A DNA stretch of 64,000 nt from Bacteroidota bacterium (GCA_005792285.1 SXSI01000050.1:4297-68296); one strand, 5' to 3'; positions 20,559 to 55,979 are shown, counted from the first letter of the stretch. Notes: generated by a model from the letters alone, not told the origin. A program made the numbers and translations.

Positions 20559-21262
20559 TGATTCCAACAACTGTAATTATTCCTGCAGCAGGAAGTAGTT
20601 CGAGATTTGGAAATATTCCAAAACAAACCTATTTACTTTCTGGGGAACCAATTATAAATTATTCATTGCGACAATTTCAGGAAAATGAAAATGTTATTTC
20701 TATTATTATCGCAACTCAAGAAAATCTCAGAAATGAAATTCAAAAATTAGTTATTGAAAATAATTTTTCGAAAGTTAAAGAGATTGTTATTGGAGGAAAA
20801 GAGAGACAAGATTCAGTTCTGAATGCTGCCAAGATTGTAAATAATGAATCAGAAATAATTCTTGTTCACGATGCAGCTCGCCCATTTATTAATCAAGAAA
20901 TGTTAAATTCTGTAATTACAAAAGCAAAAACAAATGGTTCAGCAATTGTTGCAGTGAAGATTGTTGATACAATAAAAAGGGTTGATGAGAACCAAAAGAT
21001 TAAGGAAACAATTGATCGTTCAAATATTTACGCTGCTCAAACACCGCAAGCATTTCGGAGTGATGTTTTCCAAAAAATGATAACTTTTGCAACTTCAAGT
21101 AATTTTATAGGAACCGATGAATCTATGTTAGCTGAAAAAATAAATTCCTTTCCGGAAATTGTTTTAGGTTCAACAAGAAATATTAAAATTACAACTCAAG
21201 ATGATTTAGTAATTGCTGAAAAATTATTAGAGTTATCGAATAAAAAATATCAATATGAATAA
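20555..21262 (+). CDS. ispD: 2-C-methyl-D-erythritol 4-phosphate cytidylyltransferase
   Basis: IIPAAGSSSRFG, GGKERQDSV, LVHDAARP, AQTPQAF, NIKITTQDD. Confidence 0.93.
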   Translation: MMIPTTVIIPAAGSSSRFGNIPKQTYLLSGEPIINYSLRQFQENENVISIIIATQENLRNEIQKLVIENNFSKVKEIVIGGKERQDSVLNAAKIVNNESEIILVHDAARPFINQEMLNSVITKAKTNGSAIVAVKIVDTIKRVDENQKIKETIDRSNIYAAQTPQAFRSDVFQKMITFATSSNFIGTDESMLAEKINSFPEIVLGSTRNIKITTQDDLVIAEKLLELSNKKYQYE

Positions 21263-21905
21263 CGACTTAATAATTATTTTGATTAGTTATTTACTTGGTT
21301 CAATTCCAACGAGTATCATTTTATCAAAAGTTTTTGGTGGGATTGATATTCGCGAACATGGAAGTAGAAATGCTGGTGGTACAAATGTAGTTCGAGTGCT
21401 TGGTTGGAAAATTGGAATATTTGTGATGATAATTGACGTGTTGAAAGGAACGGTTGCAACGGCTTGGGTTTCGCAAATGCAATTAATTAATTCAAATACA
21501 GTTTCAATTTTCGATCCATTTATGTTGAGTGTCATTTGTGGAATAGCAGCCATTATTGGGCATGTTTGGACAATATTTGCTAAATTTCGTGGTGGTAAAG
21601 GTGTTGCAACTGGAATGGGAATGATGATTGCACTTTCACCAACTGATATTTTAGTTGGAATTATTATTTTTATTATTATTGTTTCGATAACTAAATATGT
21701 TTCGGTTGGATCAATGTTTGGAGTTGCTTCTATAGTATTAAGTATTTTTATTAGGAAAAATATTTTTAATGCCGAAATTCAAGGTTTTGAAATTTTACTA
21801 TGGAGTACATCTTTGATTTCTCTATTTATTATTTTTACTCATCGAGCAAATATTAAACGCCTTTTGAGTGGAACAGAAAATAAATTTTCATTTAAGAAAA
21901 AATAA
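21255..21905 (+). CDS. plsY: glycerol-3-phosphate acyltransferase
   Basis: YLLGSIP, GSRNAGGTN, GHVWTIF..FRGGKGVAT, HRANIKRL. Confidence 0.95.
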   Translation: MNNDLIIILISYLLGSIPTSIILSKVFGGIDIREHGSRNAGGTNVVRVLGWKIGIFVMIIDVLKGTVATAWVSQMQLINSNTVSIFDPFMLSVICGIAAIIGHVWTIFAKFRGGKGVATGMGMMIALSPTDILVGIIIFIIIVSITKYVSVGSMFGVASIVLSIFIRKNIFNAEIQGFEILLWSTSLISLFIIFTHRANIKRLLSGTENKFSFKKK

Positions 21906-53138: not shown

Positions 53139-54211
53139 TTGCGAATATAGTCAATCGATTCTTTGATAATATTTAATGGAACTGTAACATCGTATTTAGC
53201 TTTACCAATTTCGGTAATTAAGCTAAATAATAAATTTCCATTTATATTTTTTTTGTCGAAATGCATAATTTCAAGAATCTTATCGGTTGATATATTATTT
53301 ACTTTTGAAGGAAGTCCTGAATTTACAATTGAGTTCTTTATTTTAATAAAATCCATTTCAGAAATATTTCCAAGAAGTTGAGAAATTTTACTTTCTGCAA
53401 CCATACCAATGGCAATTGCTTCTCCGTGCAATAAATGATTATCAGTTTGTAAACTGTTTGATTCAATCGCGTGACCAATTGTATGTCCAAAATTTAAAAT
53501 TTTTCGTAATCCTAATTCAAGTGGATCTTCTTCAACAACTTTAAGTTTAATATTAACTGATCCTTTAATAAGATCTGTTAATTCAGAATTAGAAAAATCT
53601 TTCGGATATTTCGAAGTTGCATTACTAAAATATATTTTATCCTGAATTAATCCGTGTTTAATAATCTCGGAAAATGAAGCAATAAATTCTCTTTCGGGCA
53701 AAGTTGATAAAGTATTAGTATCAATTAAAATTCCAATTGGTTGTTTAAAAATACCAATTCCATTTTTAATTGAATTAAAATTAATTCCTGTTTTTCCACC
53801 AAAACCGGCATCAACTTGTGCAAGAAGGGAAGTTGGAATTTGTAGAAAATCAATTCCGCGCATAAATGTACTTGCCGCAAATCCACCAATATCACAAATA
53901 ACTCCGCCGCCGATATTTATAAGTAACGAATGTCTGTCTAATCCTTTTTTAAACATCGCATTCCAAATAAATTCTGTTTGCGAAATCGTTTTATAAATTT
54001 CACCTGAAGGAATTATTATTGGCTGAATTTTATTATGTAATATATTTTCTAAAGTTGGCAACCAATATTTTACAACATTTGAATCTGTTAAAACTGCTAC
54101 TTTAGAATAATTTGAAAGTGGAAATAAATTTTCTAATTCGTTAATTATTCCATCTCCAATTATTATTGAAGAATTACCAGAAACTAATTTTGTTACATTA
54201 TTTGAGTTCAT
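53135..54211 (-). CDS. aroB: 3-dehydroquinate synthase
   Basis: GGGVICDIGGF, RGIDF.QIPTSLLAQVD..FGGKTG, EIIKHG, LNFGHTIGH, HGEAIAIG. Confidence 0.97.
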   Translation of the reverse strand: MNSNNVTKLVSGNSSIIIGDGIINELENLFPLSNYSKVAVLTDSNVVKYWLPTLENILHNKIQPIIIPSGEIYKTISQTEFIWNAMFKKGLDRHSLLINIGGGVICDIGGFAASTFMRGIDFLQIPTSLLAQVDAGFGGKTGINFNSIKNGIGIFKQPIGILIDTNTLSTLPEREFIASFSEIIKHGLIQDKIYFSNATSKYPKDFSNSELTDLIKGSVNIKLKVVEEDPLELGLRKILNFGHTIGHAIESNSLQTDNHLLHGEAIAIGMVAESKISQLLGNISEMDFIKIKNSIVNSGLPSKVNNISTDKILEIMHFDKKNINGNLLFSLITEIGKAKYDVTVPLNIIKESIDYIRK

Positions 54212-54283
54212 TTATTTTTAATGAAGTTAAGGATTAATTTTCGCAATTCAGATTATCAAATCCATCATATACAGTATTTAAGC

Positions 54284-54313
54284 AAAAAAAAACCTCCTAT
54301 AAGAGGAGGTCTT
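54284..54313 (-). terminator. intrinsic terminator (attenuator) upstream of aroB
   Basis: minus strand AAGACCTCCT-CTTAT-AGGAGGTTTTTTTTT: GC-rich stem followed by a U run. Confidence 0.85.
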
Positions 54314-54356
54314 AATAAAATTATATTGATTAAAAATTAACCAATAGCAGACCTCC
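54305..54356 (-). promoter_or_regulatory. antiterminator pairing of the aro attenuator
   Basis: leader segment GGAGGTCT (54349-54356) is the exact 8-nt complement of AGACCTCC (54305-54312), the 5' arm of the terminator. Confidence 0.8.
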
Positions 54357-54405
54357 ACAATTGAAGGGAGTAATAATAGTAAAAATAATTTTTATAAGTT
54401 TTCAT
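54337..54405 (-). CDS. Tyr-rich attenuator leader peptide MKTYKNYFYYYYSLQLWRSAIG (missing from the ORF track)
   Basis: 22 codons with 6 Tyr (4 consecutive), 1 Phe and 1 Trp, directly upstream of the terminator and the aro-tyrA operon. Confidence 0.85.
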   Translation of the reverse strand: MKTYKNYFYYYYSLQLWRSAIG

Positions 54406-54429
54406 TTAATTTGAAAATTTCGTTGTGTG

Positions 54430-54504
54430 TAGACGCTGTAAGGATCGAACTTACGACCTCCGCCTTGTAAGGGCGGCGCTCTGAACCAGCTGAGCTAAGC
54501 GTCC
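54430..54504 (-). tRNA. tRNA-Val(TAC)
   Basis: GGACGCT/AGCGTCT acceptor stem, anticodon arm CCGCC-CTTACAA-GGCGG, T-loop TTCGATC; CCA not encoded. Confidence 0.97.
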
Positions 54505-54519
54505 ATTTTTTTAAGAGTA

Positions 54520-54550
54520 CAAAATTAGTGAAATTCATTTAGTACTACAA
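54520..54550 (-). promoter_or_regulatory. FCB-type promoter for tRNA-Val (and probably the leader-aro operon)
   Basis: minus strand TTG (54548-54550), 20-bp spacer, TAATTTTG (54520-54527), about 15 nt upstream of the tRNA 5' end. Confidence 0.6.
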
Positions 54551-54557
54551 TGTAATT

Positions 54558-55979
54558 TTATTGGACAGGAACATTTTTCTTCCCGGCAATTCTTTTTAAA
54601 AGATCGAATTGAAATTTAACAAATGTGTGCAATGATTCTTCCAAAATTCTTTCTTGATCGCTATGCGCACTAAATCCTTTTGGGCCATCTTCTTCATCTA
54701 AAGCCGGACCAATTCCATAACATTGAACACCTTTTTGTCGAAGATATGCCATATCTGTTGCACCGGTACTCATTGTCGGAATTGTTAAAACATTATAAAA
54801 TTTTTCTATTGATTGTTCAATTGCACTGAATGCTTCAGAATTTAATCTCGATGGAGTTGCACCTGGTCTTGTGTCGCGATCGGAAAGTTTAACTTCAATT
54901 TGAGGATCATTAATAATTCCGCGTAAAGTTTCTAAAAATTGTGTCATATTTTCATCCGGCAAAGCTCGAACATCTAAAGTTGCAACAACTTCAGATGGAA
55001 TTACATTTATACGATATCCACCTTTAATAATATTTGGTGAAATAGAAGTTCTTAACACTGAATAATATCCTGGAATATTTTCAGCAAAATAATCTTGTGT
55101 TGATTCTAAATTTTTTCCGTCAGAAATATTTTTAAAAAGCGGCGCAATTTTTTTATCACTTACTAATGCCATTTTTTCAAAAAACATTTTTGTAGTTTCA
55201 TTTAATCTCATCGGAGTTCTCCACGAAGAAGCTTTATCAACAGCACGTGCAAGATGAAGTATTGCATTTGTTTTGAGTGGACGCGAACCGTGTCCGGCAG
55301 GACCACGGGAAATTAAATTAATTCCGTAAGGAATTTTTTCTGTAGTTTGAATTCCGGCATATCTATTTTTCCCGCCTTCTCTTGTAACTCCGCCCCCTTC
55401 AGCCAAACAAAATTCTGCATTAATTTCATCCCAATGATTCTCAACCATATATTTAATTCCATATTTAACATTTCCTTCTTCACCAGATTCGGCTAAAAAA
55501 ATTACATCGCGATCTAATTCAACTTTCATTCTTTTTAGCAAAATCATATTCATTAAACAGGAAACAACATTATCTTTATCATCGACTGTTCCTCGTCCGT
55601 AAACGTATCCATTTGATCGAGTTGCTGAAAATGGCGGGAATGTCCATTTTGCTGTATCAACATTTACAACGTCTGTATGTCCCATCATTAAGAGTGGTTG
55701 TTTTTTCCCACTTCCTTTTATTCGTGCAACTAAATTTGGTCTATTTGGATCTAATGCAAATATTTTTGATTCTATTCCTTCTTTATCAAGAACAGATTTT
55801 AAATATTCGACTACAGGTAATTCATTTCCTGGAGGATCACTTGTATCGAACCGAAGAATTGCTTGAAAGTGTGTCATCGTTTCTTCTTCAATTTTTTTCC
55901 AATCTATATTATTTTGTGAAAATAAATCTAATGGAACAATTACAAGTATAAATGTTAAAATGTATTTAATATTTTTCAT
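54558..55979 (-). CDS. exported M20/M25/M40 family metallopeptidase
   Basis: signal peptide; GHTDVV, GRGTVDDK, ESGEE, AEGG, GATD, HSDQE. Confidence 0.88.
   Translation of the reverse strand: MKNIKYILTFILVIVPLDLFSQNNIDWKKIEEETMTHFQAILRFDTSDPPGNELPVVEYLKSVLDKEGIESKIFALDPNRPNLVARIKGSGKKQPLLMMGHTDVVNVDTAKWTFPPFSATRSNGYVYGRGTVDDKDNVVSCLMNMILLKRMKVELDRDVIFLAESGEEGNVKYGIKYMVENHWDEINAEFCLAEGGGVTREGGKNRYAGIQTTEKIPYGINLISRGPAGHGSRPLKTNAILHLARAVDKASSWRTPMRLNETTKMFFEKMALVSDKKIAPLFKNISDGKNLESTQDYFAENIPGYYSVLRTSISPNIIKGGYRINVIPSEVVATLDVRALPDENMTQFLETLRGIINDPQIEVKLSDRDTRPGATPSRLNSEAFSAIEQSIEKFYNVLTIPTMSTGATDMAYLRQKGVQCYGIGPALDEEDGPKGFSAHSDQERILEESLHTFVKFQFDLLKRIAGKKNVPVQ

Follow-up and report, generated by a model that had tools for sequence, protein, structure and literature searches.

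A tyrosine-rich leader ORF and an intrinsic terminator on the minus strand of the window (the whole 64,000-nucleotide stretch analysed here) very probably form a classical ribosome-mediated leader-peptide transcription attenuator of the aroB-to-tyrA operon that follows them. We base this reading on the complementarity and folding energies of the leader segments, the rarity of terminators in the window, the constraint on the element within its species cluster, and the presence of the same co-varying architecture before aro operons in other lineages. We infer that the leader is translated, that transcription and translation are coupled, and that the leader is co-transcribed with the tRNA gene beside it. 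Tyrosine would be the main signal, as judged purely from codon content and geometry. The mechanism is of the textbook kind, and aromatic leader attenuators of shikimate genes are already known; what is new, as far as sequence comparison can tell, is a tyrosine-skewed, tRNA-adjacent member of a widespread cross-phylum aromatic-leader family that has no Rfam match at threshold in the loci searched.

Parts of the probable attenuator and their predicted switching

All parts of the element lie on the minus strand. The leader ORF (54405-54337) has 22 sense codons, MKTYKNYFYYYYSLQLWRSAIG*, and runs from an ATG at 54405-54403, which has an in-frame UAA directly 5' of it, to a UAA stop codon at 54339-54337. 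Tyrosine occupies codons 4, 7 and 9-12, phenylalanine occupies codon 8, and there is one tryptophan (W17). The regulatory codons form the run Y7-F8-Y9-Y10-Y11-Y12 (54387-54370), with Y4 (54396-54394) as an extra tyrosine codon. Right 3' of the last tyrosine codon, segment 1 (CCUUCA, 54367-54362) pairs with UGGAGG (54357-54352) in minimum-free-energy folds, giving a 1:2 hairpin of -6.0 kcal/mol. Segment 2 (GGAGGUCU, 54356-54349), which provides the 5' strand of the antiterminator, is contained within codons W17-R18-S19; it begins 12 nt 3' of the aromatic run, and the distance from its end to the end of the leader stop codon is 11 nt (6-16 nt in long-leader relatives).

The terminator lies 24 nt past the leader stop and 77 nt before aroB. 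It spans 54313-54284 and consists of a 10-bp stem and a U9 tract (54292-54284), with a folding energy of -12.5 kcal/mol; its 5' arm (AAGACCUCCU, 54313-54304) is followed by the loop CUUAU and then by the 3' arm (AGGAGGUUUU, 54298-54289). Within the 5' arm lies segment 3 (AGACCUCC, 54312-54305), the exact 8-nt complement of segment 2. An inner hairpin of 10 bp (UAUUGGUUAA / UUU / UUAAUCAAUA, 54346-54324), whose 5' strand contains the leader stop codon, stacks within the antiterminator 2:3 helix (z = -2.2 against shuffles). The leader ORF, the terminator and the exact complementarity of segments 2 and 3 all stand where the preliminary description had placed them. The RNA folding that it had proposed as a check adds the 1:2 hairpin and the inner hairpin at the stop codon, both of which it had missed. 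As modelled by folding, the element is a complete four-segment design with 1:2, 2:3 and 3:4 pairings.

The duplex of segments 2 and 3 is calculated at -15.1 kcal/mol, against a mean of -5.6 for shuffled upstream sequence, and this energy was reached by none of 500 shuffles; for the duplex between segment 2 and the terminator arm, p = 0.001 in 1000 shuffles. Together with the inner hairpin, the antiterminator reaches -18.3 kcal/mol. We modelled the ribosome as a 28-nt mask and folded the transcript as it would be before the synthesis of segment 4. With the mask at Tyr7 through Ser13, 2:3 is the predicted minimum-free-energy fold, while a mask at Trp17 or at the stop codon is predicted to hide segment 2 and make 2:3 impossible. 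In the model, then, segment 2 is free while a ribosome waits on the regulatory codons and is hidden once one has arrived at the stop codon, in agreement with the mechanism put forward in the preliminary description for both situations. The expectation that a stall at the Trp codon should not induce, since that codon lies inside the antiterminator arm, likewise matches the masked folds. Ribosomes stalled at the early tyrosine codons Y4 and Y7 would be too far upstream to cover segment 1. The ribosome-free full-length RNA favours 1:2 together with 3:4 (-25.9 kcal/mol), and before segment 4 exists 2:3 is likewise the minimum-free-energy fold of the ribosome-free RNA. Because the 1:2 hairpin is weak, termination on an untranslated leader may be leaky in this model.

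The proposed sequence of events is as follows. Transcription would most likely start from the promoter-like motif upstream of tRNA-Val and pass through the tRNA into the leader, where a ribosome would initiate at the AUG at 54405, which has no Shine-Dalgarno (SD) sequence. When charged tRNA-Tyr is plentiful, the ribosome would arrive at the UAA at 54339-54337, cover segment 2 (GGAGGUCU) and melt the inner hairpin; segment 3 would then pair with segment 4, the terminator would form, and RNA polymerase would halt at U9. When charged tRNA-Tyr is scarce, the ribosome would be slow on Y9-Y12, sitting over segment 1 or still upstream of it. The free segment 2 would then pair with newly made segment 3, with the inner hairpin helping, no terminator would form, and polymerase would continue through aroB to tyrA.

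Genomic setting, constraint and transcripts

Upstream of the element, the gene order begins with an M20 peptidase gene (55979-54558, minus strand). It is followed by a promoter-like motif of the Bacteroidota type, read from the sequence of the minus strand, with TTG at 54550-54548, a 20-nt spacer and TAATTTTG at 54527-54520. The motif stands 15 nt upstream of a tRNA-Val gene (anticodon UAC, 54504-54429, minus strand; identified by ARAGORN, with an Rfam tRNA score of 68.5 bits). The last G of the motif is an A in most close relatives, and TTG-N20-TAATTTTG also precedes tRNA-Val in a sister species (L091/L219). This motif is the probable promoter of a transcript comprising tRNA-Val, the leader and the aro genes. 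The tRNA is invariant in 10 assemblies, and its 3' end lies 23 nt from the leader ATG.

Downstream, ORF and Pfam analysis delineates an eight-gene aro operon (54211-47727, minus strand) in the order aroB-aroA-aroK-aroE-aroD (type I)-aroC-CM (CM_2)-tyrA, with intergenic gaps of 0-18 nt. The CM_2 chorismate mutase has 90 aa and the prephenate-dehydrogenase-like tyrA product 247 aa. By Pfam, DAHP synthase and PheA are missing from this operon, which closes with CM and TyrA. A terminator scan detected no strong terminator inside the operon, and no convincing promoter motif was found between the attenuator's terminator and aroB.

The preliminary description had raised the lack of an SD sequence before the leader as a caveat. 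The SD is indeed absent, and as an objection the point is moot: SD-like motifs precede only 5 of the 48 long ORFs in the window, so that a leader without one is normal for this genome. Terminators are similarly rare. A strict scan of both strands (stem of at least 6 bp with at least 3 G-C pairs, loop of 3-8, then T5 or more) returned exactly one terminator in the 64-kb window, the attenuator's own, which was also recovered by a separate terminator scan. Most transcripts seem to end, and most translation seems to start, by other means in this genome.

Runs of at least 5 Tyr in 6 codons occur at two places in the window when all six frames are read, as against an average of 0.1 in dinucleotide shuffles, and the leader is the window's only intergenic ORF with such a run. 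The second place (21662-21679, plus strand) falls within ORF 21255-21905 in a different reading frame and has the appearance of a TAT-rich stretch arisen by chance.

Ten assemblies of the species cluster differ at 4 of 125 sites in the attenuator compared with 11 of 69 in the downstream 5' UTR (Fisher p = 0.003). Within the leader ORF region, 1 of 69 positions is variable and the tyrosine run is invariant. Of the four attenuator variants, one turns an inner-helix G.U pair into A-U (54341 G>A in L003), another affects a linker base, and the remaining two fall in the terminator loop or closing pair; terminator variation among close relatives is restricted to the loop and the closing pair. Among the close relatives L002-L010, which are 98% identical, we found no compensatory change within the lineage.

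Eight freshwater metatranscriptome assemblies give a view of the transcripts. In at least six of them, contigs with the M20 peptidase gene and/or tRNA-Val stop at 54417-54424, which is 5-12 nt past tRNA-Val on the minus strand, and one of these contigs runs directly into Illumina adapter. These ends suggest a real RNA end produced by tRNA 3'-trailer processing, and the contigs suggest that the peptidase gene and tRNA-Val are co-transcribed. Contigs covering aroB are present at lower depth, and none in the eight assemblies covers 54184-54417, so that neither terminated nor read-through leader RNA is seen there. The overall pattern fits tRNA 3'-trailer processing combined with leader RNA that is scarce or short.

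Related aromatic leaders and known systems

The nearest further relatives of the window's AroB are 50-57% identical to it, and nine loci were fetched by AroB similarity and contig size, blind to leaders. Aromatic-codon leaders with terminators are found upstream of DAHP synthase or aroB in seven of these nine relatives, and four of the seven have two attenuators in tandem. Examples include MSSSEQKNWFYFYFTSQSGRLSRGL (L093; identical to that of the Levyibacteriota contig L141), MNISRQANYFWFYFTPTMGGQLTL (L092), MNTIHQKNYFWFYFTPLTGGVLMT (L215) and MKNSVNKNFYFYFYSACGGGECDC (L213). The distance from the aromatic run to the start of segment 2 is 8-12 nt in 11 attenuators at 8 loci, and segment 2 and the terminator arm change together (GGAGGUCU/AGACCUCC, GGGAGGU/ACCUCCC, GGCGGGG/CCCCGC, CGGCGG/CCGCC and GGCGGGAUCU/AGACCCCGC), with a Fisher combined p of 8e-11 for segment 2 against the terminator arm. 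Covariation in homologous leaders had been named in advance as a check on the mechanism, and these homologous or analogous leaders provide it. The S-L-Q-L-W-R codons of the window (UCC CUU CAA UUG UGG AGG) align with the T-S-Q-S-G-R codons of the Levyibacteriota type (ACU UCC CAA UCC GGG AGG); the Trp of the window's leader is a by-product of segment 2.

The tandem pairs stand before DAHP synthase (L092, 1357-1620; L213, 1461-1700; L214, 1400-1660; L218, 1468-1720) and combine two leader types. In the first attenuator of a pair, the leader is long and its ORF includes segment 2; in the second, a short leader ends in FYFYFYPI*, segment 2 comes past the stop, and the GACCCCGCCAAAAGCGGGGUUUUUUU terminator is conserved.

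When 185,579 species genomes were scanned with a pattern made of an F-Y-[FY] codon string, GGAGG and GGAGGTTTTT, at least 119 loci were returned, a search that is partly circular in that its features were taken from the window. The full architecture of leader ORF and CCUCC arm is present at 51 of the matches listed, and behind at least 28 of these 51 comes a gene for DAHP synthase, AroB, CM, TyrA, PheA or PheS, or for a PfkB-type kinase standing first in an aro operon. Among the taxa represented are Levyibacteriota, Gottesman-, Davies- and Shapirobacteria, Saccharimonadales, Methylomirabilota, uncultured Gammaproteobacteria MAGs, and Kangiella, where the leader stands before pheA. At L094, L126, L143, L149 and L201, a gene for a PfkB-family kinase comes first after the leader, ahead of genes for DAHP synthase, AroB, CM or TyrA; what such a kinase does in aromatic biosynthesis operons is not obvious.

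Structural features of the window's leader recur in these relatives. All 23 long-type leaders examined, including the window's, are predicted to form a 2:3 helix around an inner helix whose sequence varies, the inner helices having a mean z of -1.4 over the 23 sequences. The consensus structure of 22 related leaders contains a CUUCCC...GGGAGG hairpin, the equivalent of 1:2. A covariance model (R1) built from 22 related leaders, with the window excluded, finds one significant site in the window, at 54286-54413 (51.8 bits, E = 6.4e-7, model positions 1-137), although part of this score follows from the construction of the model, which shares the partial circularity of the scan. The match spans the full length of the leader ORF, and the next R1 match in the window has E = 0.67. 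When the positions next to the GGAGG/CCUCC cores of the pattern-derived leaders were tested for extra base pairs, these flanks hardly varied. No Rfam family matches the leader at threshold, either in the window or at 12 related loci.

Of 34 aro-associated leaders compared, that of the window has the strongest tyrosine skew (6 Tyr, 1 Phe, 1 Trp), the others having at most 3 Tyr, and no other relative examined has a tRNA beside its leader. In 80 loci from a profile scan, mostly Bacteroidota with AroB 35-52% identical, no aromatic leader was found upstream of AroB. FFFF peptides in L028, L035, L065 and L076 were rejected as leaders, since they arise from reading a divergently oriented coding gene in antisense. 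With a single AroB protein as query, genome contigs gave one distant match.

Textbook cases of leader-peptide attenuation concern Trp, His, Phe, Leu, Thr and Ilv, and we know of no tyrosine-specific leader among them. In the literature on tyrosine leaders and on attenuation in Bacteroidetes, we found no description of the present element. The earlier statement that a leader of this kind is little described was nevertheless too strong, given the cross-phylum family above and two published cases. One is aroR-aroF of Corynebacterium glutamicum, where a Phe-Tyr-Phe leader stands ahead of shikimate genes and, in the account given in PMC11802643, only Phe limitation acted (Neshat et al. 2014, in PMC11802643). 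As described there, it resembles the window's element in having a short aromatic-codon leader ORF on which ribosome stalling raises operon transcription (PMC11802643). Compared by description, it differs in preceding a DAHP synthase gene (aroF), which is missing from the window's operon, in its reported Phe-only effect as opposed to the 6:1 Tyr dominance of the window, and in its phylum. The other is uORFC-13-1, a motif predicted upstream of aroF in Acholeplasma, in which an intrinsic terminator comes straight after a uORF with Phe codons (Brewer et al. 2021, PMC8632094). It shares with the window an aromatic-codon uORF and an intrinsic terminator, both ahead of the first gene of the shikimate pathway, and differs in that it is described with an RBS and a Phe-coding U-run and is limited to Acholeplasma and environmental sequences (PMC8632094).

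The E. coli leaders of pheL-pheA, pheM-pheST and trpL are built on the same four-segment scheme (1:2, 2:3, 3:4), and their regulatory codons, too, come just before segment 1. The window's leader differs from the E. coli phe and trp leaders in its regulatory residue, which is Tyr and not Phe or Trp, in having no SD, and in its position directly behind a tRNA gene; its target is the common pathway plus tyrA, while theirs is pheA or trpE. The Rfam Phe_leader model (RF01859) aligns end to end with 54283-54406 at 27.0 bits (E = 0.046), below its gathering threshold of 55 bits, and the window's element is thus not a Phe_leader member. With the aromatic-leader family of Patescibacteria and other groups, the window shares an aromatic run followed by codons of the form T/S-x-x-x-G/W-R in which segments 1 and 2 reside, an inner hairpin that includes the stop codon, and a CCUCC / GGAGG terminator. 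The other members have mixed F/Y/W runs; for many of them the next gene encodes DAHP synthase or a PfkB-type kinase, and many are tandem, whereas the window's leader is single-copy, Tyr-skewed and placed before aroB.

These comparisons place a working-looking attenuator in an SD-poor, Ignavibacteria/Bacteroidota-like freshwater lineage, in a 64-kb stretch from which canonical terminators are nearly absent. They also link it to a large multi-phylum aromatic-leader family that includes Patescibacteria, which is mainly a gain in annotation and coverage. The Tyr-skewed run illustrates, in a natural setting, how codon changes alone could give a modular attenuator a new specificity. If confirmed, the element would be a compact tyrosine-responsive part for SD-independent hosts, and the family would be worth a model of its own for genome annotation.

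Alternative readings and the origin of the aro block

The identity of the signal is one point on which another reading deserves weight. It is unlikely, but worth keeping in mind, that the leader-peptide attenuator is not tyrosine-specific and senses the supply of Tyr and Phe together, or translation speed, its tyrosine skew being drift within a mixed Phe/Tyr/Trp family. The relatives do mix F, Y and W freely, with a composition that does not track operon content; a Phe-rich leader, that of L176, stands before CM-TyrA, and the window's own run includes one Phe codon. Moreover, C. glutamicum aroR contains a Tyr codon and yet, as reported in PMC11802643, was affected by Phe limitation only and not by Tyr supply, so that codon content alone is no proof of specificity. 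The 6:1 ratio of Tyr to Phe, the most extreme of the 34 leaders, and the invariance of the tyrosine run in 10 assemblies speak for tyrosine nonetheless, as does an operon that makes Tyr and has no PheA. The geometry points the same way: in the masking model a stall at F8 would leave segment 1 open and a stall at W17 would mask segment 2, and only the last Tyr codons are well placed.

That there is no attenuator at all appears very improbable. Under such a reading, the hairpin would do no more than terminate tRNA-Val, the Tyr-rich ORF would have arisen by chance in AT-rich DNA, and the aro genes would be expressed from a downstream promoter of their own. The hairpin is indeed the first terminator past tRNA-Val, RNA contigs carrying the tRNA stop just past it, the window holds another chance run of at least 5 Tyr in 6 codons (21662-21679), and the sister species has no leader. 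However, the hairpin lies 115 nt beyond the tRNA, and it is the sole strict terminator in 64 kb, where tRNA-Gly has none. An exact 8-nt complement of the terminator arm inside the ORF has a probability of 0.001 or less by chance, the ORF region is more constrained than the downstream 5' UTR, and the gap between terminator and aroB contains no convincing promoter motif. The recurrence of the architecture before aro operons in other phyla, without a nearby tRNA, also argues for attenuation over a tRNA terminator. Aromatic genes of Firmicutes are frequently under T-box or protein-mediated (TRAP) control, and by analogy a protein, an uncharged tRNA (T-box-like) or a small molecule might bind the leader RNA here. 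T-boxes for tyrosine are mentioned in PMC1262725. We give such a non-ribosomal switch hardly any credence: the relatives conserve the start codon, the in-frame aromatic run and a stop at a fixed distance from segment 2, which makes sense only if the leader is translated, and no T-box or riboswitch in Rfam matches 53800-54900 up to E = 10 or any part of the window at gathering thresholds. A small-RNA reading was likewise rejected, the sub-threshold Rfam matches to MCS4 and other families being driven by the terminator alone.

For the attenuator itself, we tentatively propose a history that is possible rather than probable. It may descend from a pan-aromatic leader family whose members accompany aro operons from one phylum to another, here between Patescibacteria-like and Ignavibacteria/Bacteroidota-like genomes, and may have become specialised for tyrosine and fused to a tRNA gene in this lineage. 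The tRNA-Val, the leader and the aro operon would then form one transcript, the 5' end of the leader would be generated by tRNA 3' processing a few nucleotides before the SD-less AUG, and a single terminator would act both as tRNA terminator and as amino-acid switch.

The sister species, a 'Bacteroidetes bacterium' MAG from the Caspian Sea (L091/L219), keeps the peptidase gene, the TTG-N20-TAATTTTG motif and tRNA-Val. Neither a leader nor a terminator was found in L091 (1561-1740) or L219 (4907-5090), where DAHP synthase lies 20 nt past tRNA-Val, and the aro genes of this species would be read through from the tRNA, free of attenuator control. As the leader is missing from this syntenic sister, the attenuator was gained or lost within the lineage. 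Between the window and L091, the peptidase is 77% identical and AroB 55%; the window's AroB is as close to those of the leader-bearing L092 and L215 (56-57%) as to that of the sister. Bacteroidota AroB sequences in genome contigs are 35-47% identical to the window's, whose best named database matches include Patescibacteria MAGs. The aro block may have moved between phyla, or it may have been replaced at the tRNA-Val site. No intermediate relative came out of a peptidase-based synteny scan, which returned only the L091 species (as L219). The M20 peptidase gene of the sister MAG has an in-frame TAA at L091 1409-1411, beyond which the homology goes on for another 50 codons; this could reflect a pseudogene, a sequencing error or recoding.
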